From Rhodovulum sulfidophilum (GTDB lineage: Bacteria > Pseudomonadota > Alphaproteobacteria > Rhodobacterales > Rhodobacteraceae), in the NCBI GenBank assembly GCA_003241785.1, contig QFPW01000013.1, positions 53,420 to 117,419 on the forward strand: a DNA stretch of 64,000 nt, read 5' to 3'. This document shows, piece after piece, positions 36,624-56,037 of this stretch (the first letter of the stretch is position 1; the number at the start of each line of letters is the position of its first letter). The notes beneath the pieces were generated by a model, which saw only the letters and a program-made list of their open reading frames with translations, ran no database searches and was not told the DNA's origin. Both the position numbers and the translations under genes were made by a program.

Positions 36624-36636
36624 TGAACCGAAAGAC

Positions 36637-39034: not shown

Positions 39035-39982
39035 TCAGGCGGCGACGTCGACGCAGAGCTTCACGTTCGGCGAGGCCGCCTGGCTCTTCCAGACCTCGGC
39101 GATGTCGCTCAGCGCGACCCGCCGGGTCGGCACCGAAAGCCGCCCGGCGAGCGCATGGGCGCAGAGATCGGCATAGGCCCCGCGCCGCGTCTCGGGCGCC
39201 GCGACCGACGAGGAATAGCCGAGGATGGCCGCCGGCTTGCCGCGCATGAAGGCCGGGGCGAGATCGACCGAGCGCGAAGCGGAATGGCCGAGCTGGACCA
39301 GCCGGCCGTTCCGGGTCGCGGCCATCAGCGCGGCGACGGCGGGCACGCCCCAGACAGGGTCGATGACGACGTCGAGCCGGCCGGCGCAGGCCGCGCGCAT
39401 CCGTTCGGCGAGCGCCTCGGGCGTCTCCCCGTCCTCGAGCACCACGAGCGCGTCGGCCCCGAGCGTCTCGAGCCTGGCGAGGGTCGCGCGGTCGCGCCCC
39501 GCCGCGACGACCCGGCCCGCGCCGAGGAGCTTGGCCGCCTGAACCGCGAACTGCCCGACGATCCCGGTCGCGCCGAGCACGAGAACCGTCTCGCCGGGGG
39601 CGAGCGCGGCGCGGTCGGTCAGCGACGTCCAGGCGGTCAGCCCGCCGATCCCGAGCGCGACCGCCATCTCGTCGGCGAGACCGTCGGGGATGTCATAGAC
39701 CCGCTCCGGCGCGGCCAGCGCCTGCTCGGCCATCGCGCCCGCCGGCGCCTGCGCCCCGAAATAGACCCGGCGGCCGCCGGCCAGGCCGACGCCCTCGTTG
39801 CCGGGAACCCGCGGGAAGCCCGCCCCCGGCTGGGTCGCGAGGAAGATGTCGATCGGATTCATCCCCGCGAGCGTCACGTCGATGAGCAGGGTCCCGTCCC
39901 GGGCCTCGGGCCGGGCGACCGTGCCATAGGCGGGGGCGCCGGGTCCGGTGAGGACGGCGGCTTTCATTTCGGAAGCTGTCAT
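39035..39982 (-). CDS. Zinc-type alcohol dehydrogenase / NADPH:quinone oxidoreductase family protein
   Basis: The start MTASEMKAAVLTGPG follows GGAGTGG and overlaps the upstream permease stop (ATGA). MDR blocks are PGNEGVG and LVLGATGIVGQFAVQAAKLLGA. Confidence 0.8.
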   Translation of the reverse strand: MTASEMKAAVLTGPGAPAYGTVARPEARDGTLLIDVTLAGMNPIDIFLATQPGAGFPRVPGNEGVGLAGGRRVYFGAQAPAGAMAEQALAAPERVYDIPDGLADEMAVALGIGGLTAWTSLTDRAALAPGETVLVLGATGIVGQFAVQAAKLLGAGRVVAAGRDRATLARLETLGADALVVLEDGETPEALAERMRAACAGRLDVVIDPVWGVPAVAALMAATRNGRLVQLGHSASRSVDLAPAFMRGKPAAILGYSSSVAAPETRRGAYADLCAHALAGRLSVPTRRVALSDIAEVWKSQAASPNVKLCVDVAA

Positions 39983-40737
39983 TTTCCACTCCAATGCACA
40001 GCGCGGCGTTCCAGATAGAGGAACAGCAGATTGAGGGCGTAGCCGAGCAGGCCGGCGGCGAGGATCGCGGCGTACATCCGCGGCATGTCGAAGATCATCT
40101 GCGCGTTCATGATCCGCTGTCCGAGCCCGTCGGTCGAGCCGATGAACATCTCGGCCACGATCACGATGACGAGCGCGATCGAGATGCCGTTGCGCATGCC
40201 GACGAAGGTCTGCGGCAGTGATTCCCAGAGCGTGACGTCGATCAGCACCCGAAGGCGGCCCGCCCCCATTACCCGCGCCGCGAGCTGGCGCAGCTTGCGC
40301 GCGTTCATGACGCCATAGGCGACGTTGAACAGGATCGCGAGCGCGGCGCCGAAGGCCGCCACGGCGATCTTGGTCGCCTCGCCGGTGCCGAAGAGCACGA
40401 GAAAGAGCGGGAAGAGCGCCGAGGCGGGCGTCGAACGGAAGAAGTCGATCAGAAGCTCGATCGAGCGATAGACCCGCTCGGAGGCGCCGAGCAGGATGCC
40501 AAGCGGCACCGCCACCGCGGTCGCGATCAGGAAGGACCAGGTGGCGCGCAGGATCGTGCGCGAGAAATCGGTCCAGAGCGTGCCGCGGAAAAGATCCTGG
40601 ACGAAGGCGGCGAGCGCCTCCCCGGGCGAGGGCAGAAGCACGGGATCGACCACGCCGAGCCGGGCGACCACCGCCCAGATCAGCAGGAGGCCGATGGCGC
40701 CGTAAAGCGGCCGCAGGCATGCGAGCGTCGCCTTCAT
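39979..40737 (-). CDS. ABC transporter permease (NitT/TauT family)
   Basis: The internal start MKATLACLRPLYGAIGLLLIW begins a 6-TM BPD-transport domain. ATGA overlaps link it to both neighbours. Confidence 0.8.
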   Translation of the reverse strand: MKATLACLRPLYGAIGLLLIWAVVARLGVVDPVLLPSPGEALAAFVQDLFRGTLWTDFSRTILRATWSFLIATAVAVPLGILLGASERVYRSIELLIDFFRSTPASALFPLFLVLFGTGEATKIAVAAFGAALAILFNVAYGVMNARKLRQLAARVMGAGRLRVLIDVTLWESLPQTFVGMRNGISIALVIVIVAEMFIGSTDGLGQRIMNAQMIFDMPRMYAAILAAGLLGYALNLLFLYLERRAVHWSGK

Positions 40738-41546
40738 CTGCGCACCTCGCGCTGGAAGATCTCGAGCGTCGCGGTCTTTACCGCGATGAATTCGGGCGAG
40801 AGGCTGGTCTCGGCCGTGCGGGGCCGCGGCGCGTCGAAGGCGACGCGGCCCGCGACCCGCGTCGGCTTCTTGGTCAGGAGCAGGATCTCGTCCGCGAGAT
40901 GCACCGCCTCGTCGAGATCGTGGGAGACGAGCAGCGTCGTCACCCCCCGCCCGACCAGCGCGTGCTGCAGCTTCTCGCGCAGGAAGAGCGTCATTTCGTA
41001 GTCGAGCGCCGAGAAGGGCTCGTCGAGGAACAGGACCTCGGGCTCGATGACCATGGCCCGCATGATCGAGACGAGCTGCTGCTGACCGCCCGACATCTCG
41101 TAGGGATAGCGGTGGAGGTCGACGCGCACGTCGAAGGCCGCGAGGACCCGCTCGAGCCGCGCCTCGCGCTCGCGCCTGGCGAGGCCGAGGAACTTCAGCG
41201 GATAGCGGATGTTGTCGATCGCGCGGAGCCAGGGAAAGACCGCCTCGCGATAGTTCTGGAAGACATAGCCGATCCGGGTTTCCCGCACCGGCTTGCCGTC
41301 GAAGAGCACGCTGCCCGCGTCCATCGGCAGGATGCCGGAGATCATGTTGATGAGCGTGCTCTTGCCGCAGCCGTTCGGGCCGAAGATCGACACGATCTTG
41401 CCCCGCTCGATATCGAGATCGAAATTCTCGTAGAGCGGGGCGCCGTCGAAGCGCTTGCACAATCCCCGGATCGCGATGTGGGTCGCGGCTCGCGGCGCCA
41501 CTCCGGCGGAGCCTTCCGGCCGCGCGCGTCGCAGGCTTGAAATCAT
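40734..41546 (-). CDS. ABC transporter ATP-binding protein (NitT/TauT family)
   Basis: The start MISSLRR follows CAGGAGG. Motifs are Walker A GPNGCGKST, signature MSGGQQQL and Walker B LFLDEPFS. Confidence 0.85.
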   Translation of the reverse strand: MISSLRRARPEGSAGVAPRAATHIAIRGLCKRFDGAPLYENFDLDIERGKIVSIFGPNGCGKSTLINMISGILPMDAGSVLFDGKPVRETRIGYVFQNYREAVFPWLRAIDNIRYPLKFLGLARREREARLERVLAAFDVRVDLHRYPYEMSGGQQQLVSIMRAMVIEPEVLFLDEPFSALDYEMTLFLREKLQHALVGRGVTTLLVSHDLDEAVHLADEILLLTKKPTRVAGRVAFDAPRPRTAETSLSPEFIAVKTATLEIFQREVRR

Positions 41547-41626
41547 CCTGGCCTCCTGTCCGGAATGGCCGGCGGGACGGAGGCGCCGGAGCCGCCCGTC
41601 CACCGGGATATCGACCGCGGCGCGGC

Positions 41627-42598
41627 TCAGAGCGGGGCCAGCAGGCTCCGCGCGTCGACGTCCGCGTTCACGACGCCGAAGGAGACGCCGGTGTCGATGA
41701 ACTTCTGGAAATCGGCGATCTGCTTCTCCGTCAGGTCCCGGGCCATGACGAAATGCGCGAGCGGCACGTCGGCCGCCACGGAGTCCGGCACGTTGAGATC
41801 GGAGGTGAGGAAGGCGCGCACGCTCGGATCGTCGCGCACGTCGGCGAGGGCCTTTTCCCAGGCCCGGGCAAAGCGCGCCGCGACCTCGGGCTTCTCGGCG
41901 AGCAGCCTGCCCGAGACCGCCGCGCCGGCGGCGTAGGTGTCGGCCTCGGGATCTTCGAGCAGATAGGTCGACATGACGCCGGCCTCGATCCGCCGCGCGA
42001 TGCCCGCCTGGATCATGATGCTCGCCACCGGCTCGAGCGTGTAGCCGCCGTCGAAATTGCCGGATTTGAGCGCGCCCACCTGCACCCCGAGCGGCTGTTC
42101 CTGCATCTGGTAGTCGGCGCCGTCGGCGAGGCCGACCTTGCCGAGGATCGCCTTGGCCGAGGCGATGTTCGCGGGTCCCGGCGAGGTGAAGAGCGTCATG
42201 CCCTTGAGATCGGCCAGGGTCCGCGCGTCGCTGTCGGCGCGCACGACGAACTGCTCGAAGACGTGTTCCCGGTTCTGGCCGACGAGCGAGATGTATTTGA
42301 CGGTGTCCGGCCGGCGGGAATCGATGTTCGCGCCCTCGAGCGTCACGAGGTTCGAGGTGGCGTCGATCTCGCCCGTCACCAGCGACTGGACGATGAGCGC
42401 CGGGGTGCCGAGCAGCACGGTCTCGGGCTCCAGCCCTTCCTCGGCGAAATAGCCGCGATCGAGCGCGACGTAATAGGGCAGCGCGGCGCCGACCGCGAAG
42501 ACGCCGACCTTGATCTTGTCGGCCGCGAGGCCCGGCTGCGCGGTCAGCGAGAGGAGGGCGGCCCAGAGCGCGGCCGAAAGGAGACGGGGTCTTCGCAT
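41627..42598 (-). CDS. ABC transporter substrate-binding protein (NMT1/SsuA-like)
   Basis: The internal start MRRPRLLSAALWAALLSLTAQPGLAA is a signal peptide. A periplasmic-binding fold typical of NitT/TauT systems follows (KIKVGVFAVGAALPYYVALDRGYF). Confidence 0.75.
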   Translation of the reverse strand: MRRPRLLSAALWAALLSLTAQPGLAADKIKVGVFAVGAALPYYVALDRGYFAEEGLEPETVLLGTPALIVQSLVTGEIDATSNLVTLEGANIDSRRPDTVKYISLVGQNREHVFEQFVVRADSDARTLADLKGMTLFTSPGPANIASAKAILGKVGLADGADYQMQEQPLGVQVGALKSGNFDGGYTLEPVASIMIQAGIARRIEAGVMSTYLLEDPEADTYAAGAAVSGRLLAEKPEVAARFARAWEKALADVRDDPSVRAFLTSDLNVPDSVAADVPLAHFVMARDLTEKQIADFQKFIDTGVSFGVVNADVDARSLLAPL

Positions 42599-42633
42599 GG
42601 ATCTCGGATCCTTCTGGGAGGGGATGACGCGGG

Positions 42634-43173
42634 TTATTTCATCTCCGGCGGCGGGTGGTCGAGGCCACCGGCCGACAGGAACAGCGCCAGGAGCGGATAG
42701 TAGCCGGAGATCGCCACGACCTCGCTCGCCGCGGTCCGGCCGAGCAGCGCCGCGAGCTCGGCGAGCGTGTCCGGGGGCACCCGGTGCTCGCGCACCGCGG
42801 CCCGGCAGAGCGTGATGACGAGGCAGGCGGCGCGATCCTCGGGGATCGTCTCGACCGCCCCCGAGAGGGTCGCCGCGATCACCGCCTCGGACATGCCGAG
42901 ATCGCGCGCGATGGCGGCGTGATAGTCCCATTCATAGCCCGAGCCGAAGGCGCCGGCCGCGGCCATGATCGCGACCTCGCGCGCCGGGGCGTCGAGCGCG
43001 CCGTCGAAGCGGATCGCGGCGCCGACCGCCTGGATCGCATCGGCGAGCCCCGGCGCGTCGAGCATCGCGAGGAAGGGATAGGGCACGTCCCGGCGCGGGC
43101 CGGATGCGATCAGGTCGTAGGTGCGACGTTGGACGGGCGTGAACGCGTCCTTGTCCCGGGCGCCGATGAGCAT
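42634..43173 (-). CDS. Carboxymuconolactone decarboxylase (AhpD-like) family protein
   Basis: The 179-aa all-helical protein carries the block AAGAFGSGYEWDYHAAIARDLG, typical of CMD-family members. Confidence 0.65.
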   Translation of the reverse strand: MLIGARDKDAFTPVQRRTYDLIASGPRRDVPYPFLAMLDAPGLADAIQAVGAAIRFDGALDAPAREVAIMAAAGAFGSGYEWDYHAAIARDLGMSEAVIAATLSGAVETIPEDRAACLVITLCRAAVREHRVPPDTLAELAALLGRTAASEVVAISGYYPLLALFLSAGGLDHPPPEMK

Positions 43174-43246
43174 GGTCCTCGCTTTCAGGTTCTGGGCGGG
43201 AAGGCCGCGCGGCGGCGGCCCTCCCCGGGTGTCTCGGCGGCGTTTC

Positions 43247-44095
43247 TCAGCGCCGGTCGAAGATCGCCTTGGCGACGTTGCCGACCGCCTCGACCTTCTC
43301 TTCGACGTCTTCCATCAGCAGGATGCGGCAGGGGCTCGCCTCCAGTCCGTCATAGCGCCACGGATAGGCGCCGATCACCCCGCGCTTGTTGAGGCAGAGC
43401 TCGATGTCGCCGCCGATGTTCTCCGCGTGGATCAGGCCGCGGTCGAACCCGTAGGCGTGGAAGGGGAAGATATTGTCGGTGATCTCCCGGCCCGAGAGGG
43501 AATGGGTGTAGTTGAAGTCGCCGAAGAATTCGGCGCAGCTCATGCCGACCTTCTCCTCGAACTTCTTCGCGAGGTCCGGGCGCATCTCGCGGATCGAGGT
43601 GTTCATCGCATGGTCGCCCGAGCCACAGTCGACGCCGAACCACTTGATCTTCCTGTCGAGCATCCATTCGAGCAGCTCGACCTTGCCGCCCGGGTGCATG
43701 CAGAAGTACTTCACCAGATCCTGCTCGGGCTGACCTTCCCAGTGGCGGTGCCAGCCGGTGTGCAGGATCAGGATGTCGCCGTCCTTCACCTCGACCGGCG
43801 CGCTCTCGATCATCTCCGGCGTGATGATCGCCCAGTCCTCCATATGCTCGGAGACGTCGACGACCGCGCCGGGACCGACCAGGAAATCCATCGCATAGGA
43901 GGCCATGTCGCCCATGCCGTCGGTGCCGTGCATCGCGCCGTCGATATGGGTGCCCGTGTGCAGCGCCACGTCGACCCGCTGCGCGACGATGCGCTTGGTC
44001 TGGAGGTTCTGGGCGTAGTACATCTTGTTGCCCGCGTAACCGACCCATCCCGGCGTGTGGATGTTCATCAGATGGGTCATGTCGGTGATTTTCAT
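43247..44095 (-). CDS. Putative cyclase / arylformamidase (KynB, isatin-hydrolase) family metal hydrolase
   Basis: The start MKITDMTHLMN follows GGAGAAG. The metal motif LHTGTHIDGAMHG (HxGTHxDxxxH) is present, plus GDILILHTGW and FGVDCGSGD. Confidence 0.75.
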   Translation of the reverse strand: MKITDMTHLMNIHTPGWVGYAGNKMYYAQNLQTKRIVAQRVDVALHTGTHIDGAMHGTDGMGDMASYAMDFLVGPGAVVDVSEHMEDWAIITPEMIESAPVEVKDGDILILHTGWHRHWEGQPEQDLVKYFCMHPGGKVELLEWMLDRKIKWFGVDCGSGDHAMNTSIREMRPDLAKKFEEKVGMSCAEFFGDFNYTHSLSGREITDNIFPFHAYGFDRGLIHAENIGGDIELCLNKRGVIGAYPWRYDGLEASPCRILLMEDVEEKVEAVGNVAKAIFDRR

Positions 44096-44167
44096 CGTCT
44101 TCTCCGTTCGGTTCGTTTCGGCCGCGCGGCTTCGCAAGCGCGCGCGGGCAGTCTCGGACCCGCGAGG

Positions 44168-45160
44168 TCAGGGCATGTAGCTCGCGGGAAGGTCGAGTTC
44201 GCGCAGCATCCGGCGGTAGAGGATCGCCGGGGCGTCGGGCAGCCGGATGTGCAGTTCGTCACGCAGATCGGTCGGGATCTGCTCCGGACGCTGGCTCTCC
44301 ACGATCTCGCGGTCCTGCTCCATGATCGTGTCGAAGCCGCCGGTGAAGTCGCTGTCGGGCCGGTCGAGGGAATGGTTGCGCGACACCATGACGTGGATGC
44401 GGGTGGTCGTCTCGTCGAGCGGGGCGGCGAGGAAGCTCAGCAGCGTCACGTCGCCCGAGGCGCTGCGGCCGGCGGCGTCCGACCAGGTGCGCCCGCCCTC
44501 CGGGTTCACGACGCTCTTGCGATCATGGACGATGAAGGGGAACTCGACCGTGTAGTCGCGCAGCAGGTGACCGTCGTCGTAGGCGTAGGTGAATCCATCG
44601 CCCGAGCGGGCCACCTCGTAGGGCTTGATCACCGGCCCGTCGGACAGCTCGGTGTAACCCTGGTGCACGAAGTTGAAATGCGAGAAATCCATCGCGTTCT
44701 CGAGCACCCGCCCGGCCGAGGTCTTCCAGTCCCAGCTCGCGACGTAGGTCATGCGGAAGCCGGGGTCCGCCGCCACCCCCGCGAGATAGTCGGGGAAGGG
44801 CGCGGGATCCGGATCGAGCGCGACCCAGACGAAGCCATAGGCCTCGCGCACCGGATAGGCGATCGCGCGCGCCTTCCTCGGCAGCGAGGCGCCTTCCGGC
44901 AAGGACGGGATCCGGGTGCAGGTCCCGTCCGCGCCGTATCGCCAGCCGTGATACGGGCAGACGATGCCGTCGCCCTCGACCCCGCCCCTGGAAAGCGCGG
45001 CGCCGCGATGGATGCACAGGTCCTTCATCACCGCCACGACGCCGCTCTCGCCGCGCCAGAGGACAAGCTGCTCGCCCAGCATGAAGCGGCGAAGCGGCGT
45101 GGTGGTCGCCTCCTCGCTTCGGGCGATGGGGTTCCAGAAGCGGCGCAGCGGTTCGAGCAT
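44168..45160 (-). CDS. Rieske [2Fe-2S] non-heme-iron oxygenase, VanA/phthalate-family type (alpha subunit only)
   Basis: The Rieske motif is CIHRGAALSRG...CPYHGWRY. The mononuclear-iron motif is ENAMDFSHFNFVH (NxxDxxHxxxxH). The ORF is 330 aa with a GGAG RBS. Confidence 0.85.
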   Translation of the reverse strand: MLEPLRRFWNPIARSEEATTTPLRRFMLGEQLVLWRGESGVVAVMKDLCIHRGAALSRGGVEGDGIVCPYHGWRYGADGTCTRIPSLPEGASLPRKARAIAYPVREAYGFVWVALDPDPAPFPDYLAGVAADPGFRMTYVASWDWKTSAGRVLENAMDFSHFNFVHQGYTELSDGPVIKPYEVARSGDGFTYAYDDGHLLRDYTVEFPFIVHDRKSVVNPEGGRTWSDAAGRSASGDVTLLSFLAAPLDETTTRIHVMVSRNHSLDRPDSDFTGGFDTIMEQDREIVESQRPEQIPTDLRDELHIRLPDAPAILYRRMLRELDLPASYMP

Positions 45161-45188
45161 GGCTAACTCCGGTTGGTTGGCTCGGGCC

Positions 45189-45902
45189 TCACACCCCGAG
45201 GAAAAGCTCGCGGAAATTGTCCGCGGCGAGCAGGTCGCGGGCCGTCTCGCGCAGCCGGACGGTTCCGGTCGACATCACGATCACCTCGTCTGACAGACCG
45301 ATCACCTGCTGCGGGTTCTCCTCGACCACCCAGACGACGCCGACGCCGCCCCGATTGATCTCGGCGATGCCGCGCGCGACCTCGTCGGTCATCGAGGGGG
45401 AGAGGCCCGAGACGGGCTCGTCGAGGATGATGAGCTTCGGCTCGTTGATCAGCGCCGAGGCGATGGCGAGCATTTGCCGCTCGCCGCCGGAGAGCGAGCT
45501 GCCGTGCTGGGAGCGTCGCTCGACGAGCCGGGGGAAGCGCGCATAGGCCGCGTCGATCGCCCGCCGCCGCGCGGCGGCCGAGAGGAGCAGGCTGCTCATC
45601 TCGAGATTTTCGTGCACCGTCAGCGAACGGAAGACGTTGCGCGTCTGGGGCACGTAGCCGAGCCCCGCCGCGGCGATCTCCTGCGTCGGCCTGCCGGTGA
45701 TGTCCCGCCCGTCGAAGAGCACGCGCCCGCCCATGACCGTGCACTGGTTCATGATCGCGCGGGTGAGCGAGGTCTTGCCCGCGCCGTTCGGTCCGATGAC
45801 CGACAGCATCGTTCCCTGGGCGAGATCAAGCGAGACGTCGTGCAGCACCGGCAGCTTGCCGTAGCCGGCGACGAGGTTCTGGATCGACAGGATCGGTGTC
45901 AT
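45189..45902 (-). CDS. livF: Branched-chain amino acid-type ABC transporter ATP-binding protein (LivF-like)
   Basis: Motifs are Walker A GPNGAGKTS, signature LSGGERQM and Walker B IILDEPVSGL. Confidence 0.85.
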   Translation of the reverse strand: MTPILSIQNLVAGYGKLPVLHDVSLDLAQGTMLSVIGPNGAGKTSLTRAIMNQCTVMGGRVLFDGRDITGRPTQEIAAAGLGYVPQTRNVFRSLTVHENLEMSSLLLSAAARRRAIDAAYARFPRLVERRSQHGSSLSGGERQMLAIASALINEPKLIILDEPVSGLSPSMTDEVARGIAEINRGGVGVVWVVEENPQQVIGLSDEVIVMSTGTVRLRETARDLLAADNFRELFLGV

Positions 45903-45967
45903 GGGACGCTTTCGGGGGGGGCGGGTCCGGGAGGCCGACGGGCCTTCCGGACCCCGAGGGAGGGGGA

Positions 45968-47218
45968 TCAGTTCGTCGGATAGGCGCTCGAATCGACCGT
46001 CTTCACGGTCACCCAGTCGCCCTCGTCGGAGATCTCCAGCAGGCGCGTCGCCGGGATCGTCACATTGCCATGCGCGTCGAAGTCGACCGAACCCGAGGCG
46101 CCCTCGTAGTCGATCTCCTTGCCCTCGGCGAGCGCGGCCTTGCCGGCCGCGAAGGAGACGACCTTCTCGCCGCCCGGGCCCGCGACCTCGGTCAGATGCG
46201 CGTCGATCCCCGCGCCGCCAGCGTCCTTGGCCGCCTCCATCGCCAGCGCGGTCACCATGACCGCGTCATAGGTCTCGGCCTGGTAGAAGCCCGGCTCCGG
46301 CTTCTCGCCGAAGCGCTTTTCGTAGGCGTCCGAGAAGCGCGTCCAGCTTTCGGCGCCCTCGACCTGGGAGGAGACGGGATTGAGCGCGCCCTTGACGATG
46401 TCGACGCCGGCGGCGCTGACGAAATCCGGCGACTGCAGCTCGGCCGTCACCCAGTATTTCCAGTCGTAGCCACGCTGATAGGCCTGCTTGACGAAGGCGA
46501 CGCCGGCGGTCTGTCCGACGGCGAGGAAGACCATCGAGGGATCGGCGTCGGCGACGGCGCGCACCTCGGACTGGTAGTTGGTCTGGCCGGGCGCCAGCAC
46601 GACCTCCTTCACCACCTTGCCGCCGAACCGCTCGTAGGCGTCCTTGAAGGTCTTGGCGCCGGACTGGGTGCCTTCGAGGTTCTCGACGACGAGGACGATC
46701 TCCTTCTGGTCGAGCTCGTCGAGCAGCATCTTGGCATGGACCACGCCGAGGAAGCTGTCCGAGGCGTTGGTGCGGTAGATGTAGGTCCCGGTGCCGCCCA
46801 CCTCGTCGAGCGCCTCGGTCCCGGCCGAGGTCGAGATGACCGGGATCTCATGGTCCTTGGCGAAGGCGCGCAGCGCGAGGATCGGGTCGGATTCCGGGCC
46901 GATGATCGCGCTGACTCCCTCGACCGAGACGAGCTTGGTCGCGCCGCGGATCGCGCCGTCGACGGTCGAGGCATTGTCCTCGGCGACGAGCTCGACCGGG
47001 CGGCCCAGCACGCCGCCGTCGGCGTTGATCTCCTCGATCGCGAGCAGCGCGGCGTTGTTGAGCGCCGGCGCCCAGGGGCCCATGTCGCCGGTGAAGCCGA
47101 CGAGCAGGCCAAGCTTCACCGGGCCGTCCTCGGCCATCGCCGGCAGCGCGAGGGCGAGGGCGGACGCCGTCATCAGGGCGCGCGCCAGACGGGCGGTCAG
47201 CGGGGAGGCGAAGGTCAT
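45968..47218 (-). CDS. Leu/Ile/Val-binding-protein-family periplasmic substrate-binding protein
   Basis: The 416-aa ORF has an AAGGAGA RBS and a signal peptide ending ALPAMAED. Type I PBP blocks are VKLGLLVGFTGDMG and AIIGPESD. Confidence 0.85.
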   Translation of the reverse strand: MTFASPLTARLARALMTASALALALPAMAEDGPVKLGLLVGFTGDMGPWAPALNNAALLAIEEINADGGVLGRPVELVAEDNASTVDGAIRGATKLVSVEGVSAIIGPESDPILALRAFAKDHEIPVISTSAGTEALDEVGGTGTYIYRTNASDSFLGVVHAKMLLDELDQKEIVLVVENLEGTQSGAKTFKDAYERFGGKVVKEVVLAPGQTNYQSEVRAVADADPSMVFLAVGQTAGVAFVKQAYQRGYDWKYWVTAELQSPDFVSAAGVDIVKGALNPVSSQVEGAESWTRFSDAYEKRFGEKPEPGFYQAETYDAVMVTALAMEAAKDAGGAGIDAHLTEVAGPGGEKVVSFAAGKAALAEGKEIDYEGASGSVDFDAHGNVTIPATRLLEISDEGDWVTVKTVDSSAYPTN

Positions 47219-47256
47219 TGTCTCAGTCTCCTTTGATGGATGCCTGACGCGGCGGC

Positions 47257-48012
47257 TCAGGCGGGTTCTTGGGTCGCGGGGGCGCCGATGTAGAGGCGGA
47301 CGACCTCGGGGTTGTTGAGCACCGCGTCGGTCGGGCCGCGGGCGATGACGCGCCCGTCGGCCATGGCGACGCAGCTGTCGCAGACGTCGGCGATGAAGCG
47401 CAGGTTGTGGTCCACGAGCAGGAAGGTGACGCCCCGATCGCGGAGCGCGCGGATATGCCCGACCAGGTTCTCGAGCGCCGCCGGATTGACCCCGGCCGCC
47501 GGCTCGTCGAGCAGCAGGATTTTGGGCTCGGCCATCGAGGCGCGCGCGAATTCGAGCATCTTGAGCTCGGGCGCGGAGAGGTCCTGCACCCAGATATTGG
47601 CTCGCTCGGCGAGGCCGAATTCGGCCAGGACCTCGAGGCAGCGCGCGATCAGGCGCGCGTCGGGCCGCGCGCCGCCGAGCAGCCGCGTCCGCGTCATCCG
47701 CTCGTCGCGCGAGAAGACCAGCATGTTCTCGAGCACTGTCATGCGCGGAAAGCCGGTCGGCGTCTGGAAGGTGCGCACCATTCCGGCCGCCGCGATCCGC
47801 GCCGCGGGCCAGCCGTCCACGCGGTCGCCGCGGAAGGTGACCGCGCCGGAATCGGCGGGAGTGAAGCCGGTGATGACGTTGAAGAGCGAGGTCTTGCCGG
47901 CGCCGTTGGTGCCGATGAGGCCGACGATCGCGCCTTCCGGCACGTCGAGCGACACGCCGTCGACGGCGTGGATGCCGCCGTAGCTCAGCCGGATGTCACG
48001 CGCGCTGAGCAT
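47257..48012 (-). CDS. livG: Branched-chain amino acid-type ABC transporter ATP-binding protein (LivG-like)
   Basis: Motifs are Walker A GTNGAGKTS and Walker B LLLDEPAAGV. A LivG-type C-terminal tail is present. Confidence 0.85.
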   Translation of the reverse strand: MLSARDIRLSYGGIHAVDGVSLDVPEGAIVGLIGTNGAGKTSLFNVITGFTPADSGAVTFRGDRVDGWPAARIAAAGMVRTFQTPTGFPRMTVLENMLVFSRDERMTRTRLLGGARPDARLIARCLEVLAEFGLAERANIWVQDLSAPELKMLEFARASMAEPKILLLDEPAAGVNPAALENLVGHIRALRDRGVTFLLVDHNLRFIADVCDSCVAMADGRVIARGPTDAVLNNPEVVRLYIGAPATQEPA

Positions 48013-48973
48013 GGGCGATGCCTCCTCGGGGCTTGGCGGCGAGATCGATGACCTCTGGGCGCTCGGGGAAGATCCCGTCCGGGCGGAAGCGCAGGATCAG
48101 GATGAGCACGAGCCCGACGAGCGCGGTGCGGATCGAGGTCAGCGCCACGGCGAGCTCGCCCGAGACCTGCAGGAAGCGCAGCGAGTCGTGCAGCAGGATG
48201 AAGACGAAGGCCCCGAGCAGCGCGCCGCGCTGGTTGCCGATCCCGCCGATGATCAGGGCGGCCCAGATGAAGAAGGTGAAATCCGAGGTGAACTGGCCCG
48301 GGATGATGAGCGTGTTGTACCAGACGTAGACCATGCCGGCGACGCCGGTGATCGCGCCCGAGATCACGTAGAGGCGCTGGCTCGTCCGGCGCGGGTCGAT
48401 GCCCGCGGTGATGGCGAGCGCCTCGTTCTCGCGCAGCGCCTTGCAGGCGCGGCCGAAGGGCGAGAGCGCGAGATGGCGGGTCAGCGCCCAGGTGAGCGCG
48501 AGCCCGGTCAGCGCGAGCCCCAGCAGCACGTAGCCGTAGCTCGTCGCCGGGACCGCCGTCTTGAACGGCTGGTCGAGCCCGTAGATGCCCGCGACGCCGT
48601 TCGTCAGCCAGGCCGCGTTGGTGTAGAACTGCCGGATCACCTCGGCGAAGGCGAGGGTCACGATCAGGAAGTATTCCCGGCGGAGCCGCAGCGTCGGCAG
48701 GCTGATGAGCCAGGAGGCGAGGCCGGCGGCCGCGGCGGCGCCGATCGCGCCCACCCAGATCGGCAGGCCGAGGCCGAGGACATAGACCTGATAGGATTCC
48801 GCGGGCCGCGCCGTCAGCAGCACATAGGCGTAGGCGCCGATGCCGAAGGGGGCCACGATGCCGAGGTCCCAGAGCGGCCCGACGCCGGCCTCGAGGTTGA
48901 GCGCGAGGCAGACCATGCCGTAGATCGCCCCGAGGCTGGCGAGGCTGATCGCGAAGAGGATGAAGCCTTCCAT
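47996..48973 (-). CDS. livM: Branched-chain amino acid-type ABC transporter permease (LivM-like)
   Basis: The 325-aa polytopic protein overlaps the livG-like start by 17 nt. Confidence 0.85.
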   Translation of the reverse strand: MEGFILFAISLASLGAIYGMVCLALNLEAGVGPLWDLGIVAPFGIGAYAYVLLTARPAESYQVYVLGLGLPIWVGAIGAAAAAGLASWLISLPTLRLRREYFLIVTLAFAEVIRQFYTNAAWLTNGVAGIYGLDQPFKTAVPATSYGYVLLGLALTGLALTWALTRHLALSPFGRACKALRENEALAITAGIDPRRTSQRLYVISGAITGVAGMVYVWYNTLIIPGQFTSDFTFFIWAALIIGGIGNQRGALLGAFVFILLHDSLRFLQVSGELAVALTSIRTALVGLVLILILRFRPDGIFPERPEVIDLAAKPRGGIAHAQRA

Positions 48974-48985
48974 GGAAATCCGCCC

Positions 48986-49873
48986 TCAGTGCGCGCGCGC
49001 GGCGCCGCCGCCCCAGAGGGACTGGAGCCCCCGCGGACGGATGAGCAGCACGACGATGATGATGAGAAAGGCGAGAGCCGACCGGTAGGAGGGCTCGACG
49101 ACGAGCAGGCCGAGCTCGATGCCGAAGGCGAGCACGAAGGCCGCGAGCATCACGCCGTAAAGGCTGCCGAGCCCGCCGAGAACGGTCGTCGCGAGAATGA
49201 TGATGATCTGCTGCCAGCCCATCGCGAGATGCAGCGAGCCCATGATCCCGAGGAACACGCCCGCGAGCCCGCCGAGCGCGGAGGCGGCGAACCAGACGAG
49301 ATAGGAGCTGCGCAGCGGGTCGATGCCCCGCGCGCGCGCCAGCTCCTCGTTGTCGGAAACCGCGCGGATCGACTTGCCCATCGTGGTCAGCGTCATGAAG
49401 AGATGGATCGCCAGCGCGGAGAGCAGCGCGACCGCGACGATCGCGAGCTCGTAGGGCGTCATGAAGGGCTCGCCGAAGAGCTGGATCGCCCGGACCGGCG
49501 GCAGGTCGTAGGCGAGCATCCGCTTGCCGGCCGCCGCGCCCACGAGGCCGTAGATCACATAGGCGGCGCCGACCGAGGTGAAGAGCAGGACGAGCGTGCC
49601 GCGCGCCTTCACCGGGCGAAAGAGCACGCCGTAGAGCAGCGCCCCGACCGCCCCGGTCAGCAGCGCGGCGCCGAGCGCCGCGAGGACGATCGGCAGGCCC
49701 GCGTTCGAGAGCCAGAGGCCGAGATAGGCGCCGAGGAGCAGCATCTGCCCGTGCGCGATGTTGAGGAAGCCCTCCACCTTCACGATCAGCGCGAAGCCGA
49801 CCGAGGAAAGCAGGATCACGCTGCCGGTGATCAGGCCGAAGATGACGATGTCCAAAGTCCCTCCCTTTCGCAT
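48986..49873 (-). CDS. livH: Branched-chain amino acid-type ABC transporter permease (LivH-like)
   Basis: The LivH-like N-terminus reads DIVIFGLITGSVILLSSVGFALIVKVEGFLNIAHGQ. The start is ATG 49873 or TTG 49855 (AAGGGAGGG upstream). The ORF-track ATG at 49930 adds an Arg/Pro-rich extension. Confidence 0.8.
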   Translation of the reverse strand: MRKGGTLDIVIFGLITGSVILLSSVGFALIVKVEGFLNIAHGQMLLLGAYLGLWLSNAGLPIVLAALGAALLTGAVGALLYGVLFRPVKARGTLVLLFTSVGAAYVIYGLVGAAAGKRMLAYDLPPVRAIQLFGEPFMTPYELAIVAVALLSALAIHLFMTLTTMGKSIRAVSDNEELARARGIDPLRSSYLVWFAASALGGLAGVFLGIMGSLHLAMGWQQIIIILATTVLGGLGSLYGVMLAAFVLAFGIELGLLVVEPSYRSALAFLIIIVVLLIRPRGLQSLWGGGAARAH

Positions 49874-49971
49874 CGGCGAGACCGGCCGTCCCGCGACCCG
49901 GGGGTCGCGAGCGCGCGGCGGCTCAGTCATGAACGGGGCGGCGCGCCTTCGCGCGCCGGACCCTCCCGGGC

Positions 49972-50610
49972 TCAGGCGCTGCGGCGCAGCAGCGAGCGGA
50001 ACCAGCCTCTCAGCGACAGCCAGACAAGGCGCGCGCCGCTTATCGGCTTCGCCTTGGGCGCGACCGCCCCGGTGCTGGCCCGCGGCGAGACCCCGGTCTC
50101 GCAGACGTCGTAGATCCCCTTCCGCTCCGCGGCGAGGGGCGCCTCGGCCGCCGCGACGGGCGAGGCCGCCGGAAGCGCCTGTTCGACATTGGCGACGAAA
50201 TCGCCGATCAGCACCGAGGCGATCTCCTGGATGATGCCGGTGCGGCCGAACTGGGCGATCGTGCCCGAGAGCTGCACGTCGGCGTCGACGCTGACCTTGG
50301 TCCCGCCGTCCACCTCGGCGATGGCGCAGTCCATTGTCATCTTGCCTCGGGAGGCGCCCTTCTTGTCGACGCCCTTGCCCTCCATCTTCGCCCGGCGCGC
50401 CTCCTCGTCGTATTCGACGGTGGCGGCGCCCTCGAAGGCGGCCTGGAACGGACCGACCTTCATCGACATCTTGCCCGAGAGGCTGCCGTCCGGCTTGGTG
50501 CCGAGATATTCCGCCCCGGGCAGGCAGCTCGCGACGGCGGGAACGTCGTGGAAGAAGGCCCAGACCTGGTCGCTCGGGCGGTCGAGGGTGAATTCCTGGA
50601 TGATCTTCAT
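49972..50610 (-). CDS. coxG: CoxG / SRPBCC-family protein (carbon-monoxide-dehydrogenase subunit G-like) with C-terminal extension
   Basis: It starts MKIIQEFTLDRPSDQVWAFFHDVPAVASCLPGAEY and contains GPFQAAFEG, typical of CoxG. About 70 extra C-terminal residues end in a basic amphipathic tail. Confidence 0.75.
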   Translation of the reverse strand: MKIIQEFTLDRPSDQVWAFFHDVPAVASCLPGAEYLGTKPDGSLSGKMSMKVGPFQAAFEGAATVEYDEEARRAKMEGKGVDKKGASRGKMTMDCAIAEVDGGTKVSVDADVQLSGTIAQFGRTGIIQEIASVLIGDFVANVEQALPAASPVAAAEAPLAAERKGIYDVCETGVSPRASTGAVAPKAKPISGARLVWLSLRGWFRSLLRRSA

Positions 50611-50646
50611 CTCTGCGGTCCTGTTCTGACGATCCCGAGGCCCGGC

Positions 50647-51504
50647 CTAGAAGCTCTGCCCGGAGACGGTGATCCGATAGACATCGGTGCGGCGATCCTC
50701 GCGCGGGCGCACGAGGGGCGAGCGGACCCGAGCCGCGCGGATCTCGTCGAGCGAGAGCCGGGCCCGGATCGCGGTCGTCTCGTCCTCGCCGAGCGGCCCG
50801 GCGAGGCAGTCGCCGAAGGCGTCGGCGATCATCGAGGAGCCGAGGAAGCGGATCCCCTGGTCGCGCCCCGACTGGCTCGCGCAGACCATCGGCAGCTGGT
50901 CGAGATTGGCCTGCGCGAGCGCGCCGCGCACCTGGCCGATCCGGCCCATGGCATCCCGGGGCGTCTTGTCGAAGCCGCCGACCCAGGCGGTCGGGACGGC
51001 GAGGATGTCGGCGCCCGCCAGCGAGAGACCGCGCGCGACCTCGACGAACCGCAGGTCATAGCAGACGCAGAGGCCGATCCGGCCGAGATGGGTCTCGGCG
51101 AGGACGAGGCCGAGGTCCCCCGGAGCGAAGACCGCCTTCTCGCCGTCGAAGAGATGGAGCTTGCGATAGAGCGCCGGCGCGCGCCCCGGGGCCGCGAGCA
51201 GCGCGGCGTTGAAGAGCGCGCCCGACGGCCCCCTCTCGCAAAAGCCGCAGGCGACGACGACGCCGAGCTCCTCGGCGAGCGCGGTCAGCAGGGTCCGGGT
51301 CGGCCCGTCGGCGGGCTCCGCCGCGCCGGCGAGACCCTCGGGATCGAGCCCGTAGCCCGAGACCGCGAGTTCCGGCAGCACGATCAGGGCCGAGCCCGCC
51401 CGGGCCTCGGCCCGGATGAGTTCCGCGATCCGTTCCCGGTTCTCCACCGCCGCGTAGAGGCGCGCGCCGAACTGGACGGCGGAGACCTGGAACGGGGCGC
51501 TCAT
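50647..51504 (-). CDS. Carbon-nitrogen hydrolase (nitrilase superfamily) amidase
   Basis: The internal start is MSAPFQVSAVQF. Catalytic-triad contexts are VLPELAVSGY (Glu), YRKLHLF (Lys) and GLCVCYDLRF (Cys). ATGA overlap links it to the upstream cupin gene. Confidence 0.85.
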   Translation of the reverse strand: MSAPFQVSAVQFGARLYAAVENRERIAELIRAEARAGSALIVLPELAVSGYGLDPEGLAGAAEPADGPTRTLLTALAEELGVVVACGFCERGPSGALFNAALLAAPGRAPALYRKLHLFDGEKAVFAPGDLGLVLAETHLGRIGLCVCYDLRFVEVARGLSLAGADILAVPTAWVGGFDKTPRDAMGRIGQVRGALAQANLDQLPMVCASQSGRDQGIRFLGSSMIADAFGDCLAGPLGEDETTAIRARLSLDEIRAARVRSPLVRPREDRRTDVYRITVSGQSF

Positions 51505-51923
51505 CGCGGCAGCTCGCCGCAATAGGTCGCGGGCACGTCGCAATCCTCGGCCAGGGCGCCGACGCGGCGGAGCAGCGGCACGTCCGCCGGCGCGGGGCCG
51601 CCCACCGACACGACGCGCTCGCCCTGGTCGGCGCGGATCGCGTGCTTCACGCCGATCGGCACGTGCACGACGCACCCGGCGTGGAACGGCAAGCTCTCGC
51701 CATGCGTGTGATCGACCGCGGTGCCGCGCCCTTCGATGATGAAGATCGTATCTTCCGAAATCGGGTGGACATGGGGCACGTTCGCCTCGCCCGGCTCGAG
51801 CACCACGTAATTCACGTTGGCGTTCCAGGCGTCGGTGCCCGGCCAGACGACGAACCGCGCGTCCTTCGAGATCAGCGGCAGGCGCAGCGTCGGATGATCG
51901 CGGTGAAAGACCCGGATACTCAT
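51501..51923 (-). CDS. Cupin-domain protein (140 aa, intact metal motif)
   Basis: The internal start is MSIRVFHRD. The cupin motif 1 is PHVHPISEDTIFIIEGRG and motif 2 is GCVVHVPIGVKHAI. ATGA overlaps link it to both neighbours. Confidence 0.8.
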   Translation of the reverse strand: MSIRVFHRDHPTLRLPLISKDARFVVWPGTDAWNANVNYVVLEPGEANVPHVHPISEDTIFIIEGRGTAVDHTHGESLPFHAGCVVHVPIGVKHAIRADQGERVVSVGGPAPADVPLLRRVGALAEDCDVPATYCGELPR

Positions 51924-52321
51924 TCGGCGGCCTCCGTCGCGCTGATCTCGTAGAGCGCGGGATCGGCCGGGACCGTGCCGCCGATCGCCGTCATGCCCGC
52001 CTGCCCCGCCTCGAGCCGGTAGGCGTCCTCGGCGCCGATGTGGATCATCGACCCCTCGGCGAGGTCCGTCGCGGCGCCGTCGGCGAGATCGCGGATCAGC
52101 CCGGCTCCCGCCGCGATGTAGTAGACGCATTCGTAGCGGTGGCGCAGGTCGACGGTCCGCGCCCCCGAGCCGAGCTCGAGAATGTTGACGGTGCGATAGG
52201 TGGCGCCGTTCTCAGGGCCCAGGACCGCGTAGGCGGACCCCTCGCCGGTTACGATGGGCAGGGGTTTCCGCGTGACCGCGGTGTCAAGGACCTGTACCCT
52301 TCCTTGGTCGGGGCTCGGCAT
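51920..52321 (-). CDS. Cupin-like protein (133 aa, degenerate metal motif)
   Basis: Beta-rich cupin-like blocks are present (YAVLGPENGATYRTVNILEL; YECVYYIAAGAG; GSMIHIGAEDAYRLEAG). The first His-x-His is missing. It is the first gene of the long minus-strand array. Confidence 0.6.
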   Translation of the reverse strand: MPSPDQGRVQVLDTAVTRKPLPIVTGEGSAYAVLGPENGATYRTVNILELGSGARTVDLRHRYECVYYIAAGAGLIRDLADGAATDLAEGSMIHIGAEDAYRLEAGQAGMTAIGGTVPADPALYEISATEAAE

Positions 52322-52648
52322 CTGATCGTCCTATTTGGTGTGGTCTATTTTCTTTGAGCCTGGATAAAATTTTGATGACAGTCAACGCGCTTTGGCGCGG
52401 CGAGCAGCCAGCTCGCCGGGAGTGCCTGCTTTTTCCGCTGATTTTCGATGCTGCGTCCGTAACTTAGGCAGAAGCCACCCCGCAGCGCTTGGGAATCGCG
52501 GTCCACGGCCCGGCGCGGCGGGGAGGGATTTTTAATTTCATCAAGTTCGATTTATGTTAGTCAGGACATGTGCCCCTCCATCACGGGAGTGGGAACGTCC
52601 GAACGGTCCCGCATTCCCGGGATAGAACGCGAAGACAGGTAAAAAGAC

Positions 52649-53257
52649 TTGGCAAACCCTCAGCAGAACCCCGAACGCGAGCCAGACGCGCAACTCAACG
52701 AGAGCGCCTCGCGCGCTCTCATCGCGATCGGCCAGCGCGTCCGCGAATTGCGAAAGGCGCGCGGAATGACGCTGCAGCAGCTGGCGGACAAGAGCGGGAT
52801 CAGCGCCTCGATGCTCAGCCTCGCGGAGCGCGGCCTGGCCTCGCCCTCGATCGGCTCGCTTATCGTCGTGAGCGAGGCGCTCGGCACCAGCATGTCGAAG
52901 CTGCTCGAGACCAGCGACCATACCGACGATCTCGTCGTGCGCGCCTCCGACGTGCAGGTGGTCGTCACCCCGCATAACGTCGTGCGCCGGGTGCTGAAGG
53001 AGGACCGCAAGACCGGCGTCTCGATCGCGCTCAACGAATACGCGCCGAACACCGCCTCGAACGAGACGCCGCTGTCGCACGAGGGTTTCGAATACGGGCT
53101 CGTGCTCGAGGGCAGCATCGAGGTGGTGGTCGACGGCGTGAGCCACCTGCTGTCGGAAGGCGACCTGATCTCCTACGCCTCGCAGCGCCCGCACCGGATC
53201 CGCAATATCGGCGCGGGCGTCGCGCGCACCGTCTGGTTCAACACCGCGCGGCCGTGA
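52649..53257 (+). CDS. XRE-family HTH transcriptional regulator with C-terminal cupin sensor domain
   Basis: The HTH_3 block is IGQRVRELRKARGMTLQQLADKSGISASMLSLAERG. The cupin block is SHEGFEYGLVLEGSIEVVVDG...RPHRIRN. The start is TTG 52649, with no upstream in-frame ATG. Confidence 0.8.
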   Translation: MANPQQNPEREPDAQLNESASRALIAIGQRVRELRKARGMTLQQLADKSGISASMLSLAERGLASPSIGSLIVVSEALGTSMSKLLETSDHTDDLVVRASDVQVVVTPHNVVRRVLKEDRKTGVSIALNEYAPNTASNETPLSHEGFEYGLVLEGSIEVVVDGVSHLLSEGDLISYASQRPHRIRNIGAGVARTVWFNTARP

Positions 53258-55555: not shown

Positions 55556-56037
55556 GCCGGCACGCCCCGCATCGCCGCCGCGGCCTGGCGCACCGCCTTG
55601 AGGATGTTCTGATAGCCGGTGCAGCGACAGAGGTTGGAGGACAGGACCTCGCGGATCTCCGCGTCGCTCATGTCGGGGCTCTCGCGCAGCGCGCCCGCCG
55701 CCAGCATGAGGAATCCGGGCGTGCAGAAGCCGCATTGCAGGCCGTGGTTCTCCCAGAACGCCCGCTGGAGCGGGTGGAGGGTCTCGCCGTCGGCGAGGCC
55801 CTCCACCGTCTCGATCTCCATCCCCTCGGCCTGGACCGCGAAGGTCAGGCAGGCGCGGACCGGCTTGCCGTCGAGAAGCACCGTGCAGGCGCCGCAGACG
55901 CCGTGCTCGCAGCCGACATGCGTGCCGGTGAGCCCGCAGTCCTCGCGCAGCGCGTCGGCGAGGTTGCGCCGCGGCTCGACCTCGACCGGGTGGGCCGCGC
56001 CATTTACCCGCAGGGTGAGCTTCGTCTTTTCCGCCAT
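55552..56037 (-). CDS. (2Fe-2S)-binding small subunit of xanthine-dehydrogenase-family enzyme
   Basis: The 161-aa ORF has CEHGVCGACTV (plant-type cluster) and CGFCTPG...CRCTGY (second cluster). Confidence 0.9.
   Translation of the reverse strand: MAEKTKLTLRVNGAAHPVEVEPRRNLADALREDCGLTGTHVGCEHGVCGACTVLLDGKPVRACLTFAVQAEGMEIETVEGLADGETLHPLQRAFWENHGLQCGFCTPGFLMLAAGALRESPDMSDAEIREVLSSNLCRCTGYQNILKAVRQAAAAMRGVPA

Follow-up and report, generated by a model that had tools for sequence, protein, structure and literature searches.

Sixteen consecutive genes on the minus strand of a 64,000-nucleotide stretch of Rhodovulum sulfidophilum DNA (contig QFPW01000013.1, positions 53,420 to 117,419; hereafter the window, whose own coordinates are used throughout) encode two ATP-binding cassette (ABC) importers, a Rieske oxygenase, a cyclase-type hydrolase, a C-N hydrolase, paired cupins and several further proteins. 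Do these genes serve one pathway and, if so, which compound does it degrade? An earlier note, made from the sequence, had taken the run for a single undescribed catabolic supercluster acting on an N-containing aromatic or heterocyclic compound. A synteny comparison of about 40 related loci did not bear out the single 16-gene unit: there is a smaller conserved core, to which swappable modules are added. The catabolic character and the N-heterocyclic substrate were upheld as the best reading of homology and linkage, and we think it probable that the locus is a catabolic island of modular build that degrades an N-heteroaromatic (azine) compound by the general mechanism proposed below.

Conserved core and swappable modules

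Related loci (numbered with the prefix L) were collected by protein look-ups, both exact and homologous, a Rieske-anchored genome scan, a cyclase-anchored metagenome scan and a plasmid search. They were compared by tblastn of all window proteins and by all-against-all clustering of the open reading frames (ORFs) of 42 cyclase-bearing loci. The Rieske-anchored scan returned mostly 30–40% identical paralogues without the partner genes, and the cyclase was the better anchor: its metagenome scan gave at least 600 matched stretches, with 534 confirmed relatives among those listed. The genes that recurred together, with the DNA upstream of the first cupin gene, are the following.

58357–59235, minus strand: medium (FAD) subunit M of a molybdenum cofactor (Moco)-dependent hydroxylase (ORF; NCBIfam FAD-subunit families below their cutoffs)
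56048–58360, minus strand: Moco large subunit L1, NdhL/Qor-like (PDB and reciprocal best matches)
55552–56037, minus strand: Moco small [2Fe-2S] subunit S (NCBIfam small iron-sulfur families, all below their cutoffs)
53279–55555, minus strand: Moco large subunit L2, KdhL-like (PDB and reciprocal best matches)
52649–53257, plus strand: XRE helix-turn-helix plus cupin regulator (Pfam HTH_3 and Cupin_2), divergent from cupinA and from the 16-gene run
52322–52392, strand not applicable: conserved AT-rich block upstream of cupinA, a candidate promoter/operator
51920–52321, minus strand: cupinA, a divergent cupin without a full metal site (hhalign to cupinB)
51501–51923, minus strand: cupinB, a metal-binding cupin (Pfam Cupin_2)
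50647–51504, minus strand: C-N hydrolase, a nitrilase-superfamily amidase (Pfam CN_hydrolase, 4.9e-38)
49972–50610, minus strand: CoxG/SRPBCC protein (Pfam COXG)
43247–44095, minus strand: "cyclase"-family metal amidohydrolase (Pfam PF04199; HxGTHxDxxxH motif)
42634–43173, minus strand: CMD-family protein, a candidate decarboxylase (Pfam CMD)

Among about 40 related loci, a common order recurred in Rhodobacterales, Rhizobiales, soil metagenomes and Acidimicrobiia: M-L1-S-L2, the divergent XRE-cupin gene, and then cupinA-cupinB-(C-N hydrolase)-(CoxG)-cyclase-(CMD). This architecture occurs in Roseisalinus antarcticus (L084), Consotaella aegiceratis (L088) and many soil and peat contigs (L099–L157), and it is rearranged in one Acidimicrobiia genome (L089). 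Among the 21 loci in which the cyclase orthologue is flanked by 6 kb or more on each side, L2 was present in 16, cupinA/B in 13, the XRE-cupin gene in 12, and M, S and L1 in 11–12, followed by CoxG (8 of 21), the C-N hydrolase (7), the Rieske oxygenase (5), CMD (4) and the Liv-type importer (2); the NMT1-type importer and the quinone-oxidoreductase-like reductase (QOR) of the window were in none. The Moco operon is the most constant partner of the cyclase and part of the system, which the earlier note, in calling it adjacent, had understated. As regards co-occurrence of the 16 genes, which the same note had proposed to check by genome comparison, the core genes do co-occur, whereas the NMT1-type importer never recurs, QOR recurs in one locus and the Rieske gene is absent from most.

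Three grades of the module were recognised. The full grade is that of the window; in a second, neither the C-N hydrolase nor CMD is present (for example L094, L100, L113, L120 and L129); and the minimal grade (L110, L152, L154 and L163) consists of the Moco genes, the regulator and the cyclase, with an isochorismatase gene nearby. One locus, L108, holds all window genes except the NMT1-type importer and QOR, and has in addition a VanB-type reductase gene after the Rieske gene. Cyclase loci without cupins or Moco genes also exist (L096 and L097). In three loci (L007, L091 and L116), Rieske/VanB genes and no Moco genes stand beside cupinA/B, the C-N hydrolase and the cyclase, which suggests that Rieske enzymes can replace the Moco hydroxylase. 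One of these, on plasmid pmega_2 of Rhodococcus ruber MSA14 (L091, positions 93971–122765), carries a fused bicupin and two Rieske/VanB pairs; moaA and genes for a MarR regulator and an MFS transporter lie nearby, and no Moco hydroxylase genes are listed. Here, O2-dependent enzymes seem to have taken over the hydroxylation steps. Further neighbours of the module were an isochorismatase-family hydrolase (15 of the 42 loci), a Bmp/PnrA-type ABC importer (12 of 42), a short-chain dehydrogenase/reductase (SDR; 7 of 42), a luciferase-like monooxygenase (5 of 42) and an NCS2 xanthine-permease-like carrier (L094).

The XRE-cupin regulator is a conserved partner of the core: 21 of the 42 loci have an orthologue of it, divergent and in the same place. 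Its protein is PuuR-like, below the NCBIfam cutoff. When the cupinA-proximal intergenic DNA of 21 loci was aligned, a common block of the form TTG...TTTT..TA.A.T.AAA..AATT...AAAA appeared despite the GC-rich genomes (the G+C content of the window is about 70%); a k-mer search for an operator gave no universal palindrome, and the alignment gave only this AT-rich block.

The physical layout of the run agreed with the earlier description. ORF listing and independent gene calls on identical metagenome contigs both gave an unbroken series of 16 minus-strand genes that starts at 52321 and ends at 39035. The intergenic gaps range from -17 to +116 nt; in gene order, they are -4, -4, 36, 116, 12, -17, 38 and 65 nt in the first half and 28, 72, 73, 35, 80, -4 and -4 nt at the remaining junctions. 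The gap of 116 nt, before livH, shrinks to 41 nt if LivH starts at 49930. A terminator scan found seven terminator-like sites against 4.5 ± 2.4 expected, i.e. no enrichment, and none between genes, as the only two minus-strand sites were intragenic (in the 3′ end of livF and in the QOR gene). Together with the overlapping stop and start codons, the lack of intergenic terminators argues for co-transcription. The hairpin at 45209–45225 (minus strand), within the 3′ end of livF and before the Rieske gene, is the sole well-formed terminator-like one on the coding strand; it could damp read-through from the importer into the enzyme genes.

The family assignments were likewise confirmed by Pfam: Cupin_2, CN_hydrolase, COXG, two BPD_transp_2, two ABC_tran, Peripla_BP_6, Rieske with VanA_C, Cyclase PF04199, CMD, NMT1, ABC_tran, BPD_transp_1 and ADH_zinc_N in the run, and HTH_3 with Cupin_2 in the regulator. 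The first cupin has no Pfam match and is a paralogue of the second by hhalign. The XRE-cupin gene is, as had been stated, the only regulator gene in the run and its divergent flank; a LysR regulator gene (59484–60419, minus strand) lies further out, just upstream of the Moco operon.

These data also bear on the possibility that independent operons have come to lie side by side without sharing a pathway. Such chance juxtaposition would suit the NMT1-type importer, which has no counterpart in related loci, QOR, which has one in a single locus, and the order of the sub-modules, which varies between genomes (L108 and Pseudogemmobacter humi, L006, compared with the window). It is contradicted by the linkage of the core, kept across phyla and dozens of metagenome contigs, by the nearly complete gene set of L108, and by the codon overlaps and uninterrupted junctions described above. 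We consider it excluded for the core and scarcely credible for the locus as a whole, the NMT1-type importer being the part to which it could still apply.

Core proteins and the predicted pathway

The Moco operon M-L1-S-L2 (53279–59235, minus strand) lies directly upstream of the 16-gene run on the same strand, and its gene order is conserved in dozens of loci. L1 and L2 are both full-length and 37% identical to each other, and the operon has one FAD subunit and one [2Fe-2S] subunit for the two. The best PDB match of L1 was quinoline 2-oxidoreductase (1t3q, 3.2e-147) and that of L2 was the large subunit of 6-hydroxypseudooxynicotine dehydrogenase (7dqx, 3.7e-185). With proteins of plasmid pAO1 of Paenarthrobacter nicotinovorans, reciprocal best matches were obtained between L1 and the nicotine dehydrogenase NdhL (40% identity) and between L2 and KdhL (43%), and the active-site loop GTYRAPGRY of L2 corresponds to GAYRAPGRY in KdhL. 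S, the only small subunit, is 66–81% identical in related loci, and M orthologues (48–63% identity) adjoin the cyclase gene in 11–13 loci. A CO dehydrogenase of the CoxLMS plus CoxG type was considered and rejected: neither L1 nor L2 has the form I AYxCSFR/CSFR loop, and the NCBIfam CO dehydrogenase models scored 374–594 bits against cutoffs of 950–991. The CoxG protein is 35% identical to the pAO1 SRPBCC protein encoded between dhpH and NIT, its C-terminus is a hydrophobic/basic tail, and it is a probable accessory or anchoring subunit of the hydroxylase.

The cyclase is the most conserved protein of the system. Its orthologues in Proteobacteria and Acidimicrobiia are 64–89% identical, as against 41–78% for the neighbouring proteins; the mean column identity over Alphaproteobacteria and Acidimicrobiia was 76%, and in P. 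humi the cyclase is 89% identical and the Rieske protein 66%. It is abundant in soil, peat, freshwater and marine metagenomes, where several 90%-identity clusters contain more than 1000 sequences each; in the plasmid collection, a close relative was found only on R. ruber pmega_2. The protein has the HxGTHxDxxxH motif, yet it was rejected as KynB/arylformamidase (TIGR03035, 30 bits against a cutoff of 223). By Foldseek, its model fold matched isatin hydrolase and kynurenine formamidase with template modelling scores of about 0.45–0.5; the AlphaFold model, built on a 14-sequence alignment, is of low confidence, with a predicted local distance difference test score of 65 and values below 50 around the metal site. 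The cyclase thus belongs to the superfamily and not to the KynB or isatin hydrolase families proper. Orthology with PKC, the PF04199 protein of pAO1, was also rejected: although the Pfam family is common to both, their identity is no more than 24% over 137 aa (E 3e-6), and pAO1 was absent from the cyclase tblastn matches at E<=1e-8 in the plasmid collection.

Cyclase orthologues of 64–71% identity were also seen in L085/L086 and L095, with a large subunit of the L2 type only and with other partners: an alpha/beta hydrolase, an SDR, a Liv ABC importer and MarR in L085, and an SDR, a UbiD decarboxylase, an Amidohydro_2 protein and an isochorismatase in L095. These contexts suggest that several peripheral routes converge on one cyclase substrate.

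CupinB has an invariant HxH..E..H metal site (3-His-1-Glu). CupinA gave no match in Pfam or NCBIfam and keeps one of the four metal ligands, and profile-profile comparison identified it as a divergent paralogue of cupinB (hhalign probability 98.5%, E 1.8e-15). In R. ruber, the two are fused as a bicupin. The metal site of cupinB, and the weak resemblance of this protein to quercetin 2,3-dioxygenase and oxalate oxidase/decarboxylase in the PDB, raise an alternative, an oxygenolytic, maleamate-like route run by non-orthologous enzymes. There, cupinA/B would be the ring-cleaving dioxygenase of a di- or trihydroxypyridine, the cyclase an N-formyl (kynurenine-formamidase-like) deformylase and the C-N hydrolase or isochorismatase a maleamate-type amidase. 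It accords with the formamidases in the cyclase family and with the recurrence beside the module of the isochorismatase family, to which NicF belongs. However, loci with Moco genes, regulator and cyclase and without cupins exist (the minimal grade), and hence the linkage of the cyclase to L2 (16 of 21 loci) is tighter than that to the cupins (13 of 21). The poor arylformamidase score also speaks against a deformylase, and no gene of the maleate isomerase type was seen. We regard this alternative as decidedly unlikely.

The C-N hydrolase has an intact E44/K115/C148 triad. It is 31% identical over its full length to the pAO1 omega-amidase NIT (E 1e-25), N-carbamoyl amidase models score equally well, and its nearest NCBIfam model is N-carbamoylputrescine amidase, below cutoff. 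No NCBIfam model reached its cutoff for the cluster enzymes, the Moco subunits, or the neighbouring isochorismatases and substrate-binding proteins of related loci.

On these grounds, we infer the following order of reactions. The substrate would be an azine, most likely of the pyridine type, with both carbons next to N free. The Moco/FAD/FeS hydroxylase, with water as the oxygen source, would combine one M and one S with either of two large subunits, and the CoxG/SRPBCC protein would serve as a fourth, accessory subunit; the NdhL/Qor-like L1 would carry out the first alpha-hydroxylation and the KdhL-like L2 the second, on the already hydroxylated ring. The cyclase would then open the resulting di-oxo (lactam or imide-like) ring hydrolytically, and the split bicupin, made up of a catalytic cupinB and a degenerate cupinA, would process the ring or the open-chain product together with CMD, for example by isomerisation or decarboxylation. 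Finally, the C-N hydrolase would release the amide or carbamoyl nitrogen as ammonia, a step that may fall to an isochorismatase-family hydrolase in other genomes. The XRE-cupin protein is predicted to control the cupinA promoter. In this genome, the Liv-type importer and the NdmA/HpxD-like Rieske oxygenase would form an entry module, which probably turns a related (N-methylated or less oxidised) compound into a pathway intermediate, and the NMT1-type importer and the reductase would be further additions.

Several points weigh against this proposal. Given the low identity to PKC, the ring-opening role of the cyclase derives from family and linkage, not orthology, and for the cupins, CMD and QOR the assigned roles are guesswork. 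The window has no gene for a Rieske reductase. Among named models, the C-N hydrolase comes nearest to N-carbamoyl amidases. In other genomes, the transporters that flank the module are of nucleobase or nucleoside type (xanthine-permease-like NCS2 and Bmp/PnrA substrate-binding proteins), and the isochorismatase and luciferase-like monooxygenase genes found near it are reminiscent of Rut. The transporters and Rut-like families suggest a pyrimidine- or purine-like substrate no less strongly.

The same architecture could accordingly be read as acting on a nucleobase-like cyclic ureide, i.e. a pyrimidine or oxopurine analogue, for example in an oxidative route of the uracil/thymine-to-barbiturate type. 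The Moco enzyme would then oxidise the ring, the cyclase would be a cyclic amidohydrolase, the C-N hydrolase an N-carbamoyl amidohydrolase yielding NH3 and CO2, and CMD a decarboxylase. Besides the NCS2 carrier and the Bmp/PnrA-type importers, this would account for the isochorismatase, whose family includes RutB and BiuH, for the luciferase-like monooxygenase of the RutA superfamily, for the resemblance of the C-N hydrolase to N-carbamoylputrescine amidase and beta-ureidopropionase-type proteins, and for the nearest characterised relatives of the Rieske enzyme, NdmA, SxtT and HpxD, all of which act on purine-like rings. On the other hand, L2 and L1 are closest to the pyridine hydroxylases KdhL and NdhL/Qor and not to xanthine dehydrogenases, the Rut, BiuH and PncA models all scored far below cutoff, and the only precedent that unites the four families is the pyridine route of pAO1. 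Moreover, the barbiturase and ureidomalonase known so far are members of other families. We consider the cyclic ureide unlikely.

A pyridine-type ring is our tentative choice, at slightly less than an even chance, and any single named substrate, whether nicotinate/nicotinamide/trigonelline or 3-hydroxypyridine, is doubtful at best. More speculatively, the core might be an undescribed, widespread route that mineralises a common natural azine, such as a vitamin B3-type pyridine or another ring in which two alpha-carbons are free, with all ring oxygens from water and with hydrolytic instead of oxygenase-driven opening, and in which Rieske hydroxylases are O2-dependent substitutes for the Moco enzyme in some lineages; we hold this as a whole to be possible, well short of probable.

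Accessory genes and surrounding DNA

The remaining genes of the run encode the following proteins.

45189–49855, minus strand: Liv-type ABC importer of five genes (Pfam), namely LivH (48986–49855), LivM (47996–48973), LivG (47257–48012), the substrate-binding protein (45968–47218) and LivF (45189–45902), all on the minus strand
44168–45160, minus strand: Rieske/VanA_C oxygenase, NdmA/SxtT/HpxD-like (Pfam)
39979–42598, minus strand: NMT1-type ABC importer (Pfam), comprising the substrate-binding protein (41627–42598), ATPase (40734–41546) and permease (39979–40737)
39035–39982, minus strand: MDR-family quinone-oxidoreductase-like reductase, QOR (Pfam ADH_zinc_N; PIG3 family below cutoff)

The Liv-type importer and the Rieske oxygenase are an accessory unit that travels together: orthologues of the importer (58–78% identity) were found only in loci with a Rieske gene (P. 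humi, R. antarcticus and L108). The importer has the five-gene LivJHMGF architecture, and its substrate-binding protein, whose N-terminus (MTFASPLTARLARALMTASALALALPAMAEDGP) is signal-peptide-like by eye only, misses the Leu/Ile/Val equivalog (64 bits against a cutoff of 477) and has only generic relatives in the PDB. The Rieske protein retains intact CxH...CxxH and HxxxxH motifs. It matched SxtT, GxtA and NdmA in the PDB at about 1e-38, and its closest annotated plasmid relatives (33–38% identity) bear the name HpxD. NdmA is an N-demethylase, and HpxD is a Moco-independent xanthine hydroxylase that uses O2 to hydroxylate carbons adjoining a ring nitrogen. No VanB-type or ferredoxin-reductase partner is encoded anywhere in the 64-kb window, whereas a VanB-type reductase gene lies directly downstream of the Rieske gene in R. 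antarcticus and L108. Either the enzyme relies on a reductase whose gene lies elsewhere, or it has no activity in this genome.

The CMD gene follows the cyclase gene in L006, L084, L088, L099, L108 and L116, and in R. ruber it does so at 30% identity. QOR has an orthologue (63% identical) directly after CMD in P. humi, its sole recurrence; a zinc dehydrogenase at the same position in Rhodococcus was rejected as an orthologue (28% over 127 aa). The NMT1-type importer has no orthologue in any related locus compared and is a lineage-specific insertion, because QOR directly follows CMD in P. humi.

Further genes of the window lie on either side of the locus.

22020–28469, minus strand: two MmgE/PrpD-family proteins, a TctABC tripartite tricarboxylate transporter and a second RraA-like gene, a separate cluster
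32120–39012, plus strand: CUT1-type sugar ABC transporter (SBP_bac_1, two permeases and a MalK-like ATPase) and a GH3 glycosidase, convergent with QOR
59484–60419, minus strand: LysR regulator, co-directional with the Moco operon and 249 nt upstream of it

Orthologues of the sugar transporter and GH3 genes (62–74%) follow CMD co-directionally in Consotaella (L088, 11483–18730), where an isochorismatase gene is inserted among them; the block might supply this pathway from glycosides, or its position may be coincidental. Near the cyclase homologues of L094, L085 and L151, MmgE/PrpD and TctC genes are likewise found. Beyond the LysR gene are a divergent RraA/aldolase-like gene (60525–61151, plus strand; NCBIfam PRK06201 above cutoff) and then a peptide-type SBP_bac_5 transporter. 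Neither the LysR nor the RraA/aldolase-like gene is kept beside the module in other loci.

Significance and comparison with known systems

We class the cluster as one of the Moco-hydroxylase-initiated N-heterocycle catabolic type, and it is unusual in having two large subunits in one operon, a new and very conserved PF04199 subfamily and a split bicupin. Identification of the substrate would assign a function to a large conserved gene set, including the cyclase and the paired cupins, would show how one Moco enzyme uses two large subunits for consecutive hydroxylations, and might supply genes for N-heterocycle pathways known only biochemically since the 1960s–1990s. If the substrate is mundane, such as nicotinate, the result would be a variant pathway rather than new biology. 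The system also offers an example of pathway modularity, as Moco and Rieske hydroxylases appear interchangeable, and so do amidases of the C-N hydrolase and isochorismatase families. Three or more transporter types stand beside the module (Liv-type, Bmp/PnrA-type ABC and NCS2), to which the window adds the NMT1 type.

The earlier note had called the set undescribed and had matched it to none of the nic, pic, quinoline, kynurenine and isatin pathways. Both statements held: no published description of the cluster was found by full-text literature search, and no NCBIfam equivalog scored above cutoff. The families of the Pseudomonas nic and Alcaligenes pic routes (NicC/PicB, NicX/PicD, NicD, NicF and NicE) were absent from the window genes by Pfam, and an isochorismatase stands beside the module only in other genomes. 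The riboflavin/lumichrome pathway (PMC12746152) was rejected for its different enzyme types. What had been missed is the nearest analogue, the kdhL-PKC-SRPBCC-NIT genes of pAO1, along with HpoH/HpoI of Rhodococcus rhodochrous PY11.

On pAO1, the gene order is kdhL, Dabb, the cyclase PKC, dhpH, SRPBCC and the omega-amidase NIT. For PKC, a nicotine-induced protein, hydrolytic opening of 2,3,6-trihydroxypyridine to 2-ketoglutaramate has been proposed, and NIT deamidates this product (PMC6214936). The window resembles this cluster in combining four families, i.e. the KdhL type (43%), a PF04199 hydrolase, SRPBCC/CoxG (35%) and a C-N hydrolase (31%), and the logic proposed by analogy would be the same: hydroxylation next to N, hydrolytic opening and loss of the amide as ammonia. 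HpoH and HpoI reportedly perform ring-opening and deamidation steps equivalent to those of PKC and NIT. The differences are also clear. The window cyclase is not a PKC orthologue, and the cluster (21 genes) is without a DhpH-type flavin 2,6-dihydroxypyridine 3-hydroxylase, an HpoBCDF dioxygenase and a C-C hydrolase. A single operon supplies one M and one S for both of its large subunits. At these positions, pAO1 has nothing that corresponds to the paired cupins, CMD, the XRE-cupin regulator, the Rieske oxygenase or the ABC importers.

A second comparison is with HpdA1A2A3A4, the 3-hydroxypyridine dehydrogenase of Ensifer adhaerens HP1, in which a separate SRPBCC subunit is essential (bioRxiv 10.1101/2020.01.08.898148). 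HpdA is a CoxL-type Moco hydroxylase of a pyridine ring, as the window enzyme may be, and its SRPBCC subunit has a C-terminal hydrophobic tail, just as the window CoxG ends in a hydrophobic/basic one. Unlike the window system, HpdA has a single large subunit, needs phosphoenolpyruvate (PEP)-utilising proteins and feeds classical maleamate genes, which are absent from the window. The window Rieske oxygenase belongs to the same alpha-only VanA_C-type subfamily as NdmA and HpxD, whose VanB-type reductases are NdmD and HpxE; however, its identity to them is too low for orthology, it met no NCBIfam equivalog, no reductase is encoded with it in the window, and it sits in a Moco/cyclase pathway and not in a caffeine or purine operon.

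Finally, Bacillus niacini converts nicotinate via 6-hydroxynicotinate and 2,6-dihydroxynicotinate and further steps to maleamate, and a candidate cluster with a pair of Moco oxidoreductases has been described (PMC4256190). The genes of this two-hydroxylase nicotinate pathway have only been sketched so far (PMC4256190). By description only, it differs from the window in its nicF-/nicE-like genes and TetR/IclR regulators and in the lack of cupins, cyclase, C-N hydrolase and XRE-cupin regulator. The likeness to the route predicted here is that Moco enzymes hydroxylate a 3-substituted pyridine twice in succession, at C6 and C2, before an amide is hydrolysed, and the core described here could represent the missing genetics of a B. 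niacini-type two-hydroxylase nicotinate pathway or of the oxidative pyrimidine pathway.

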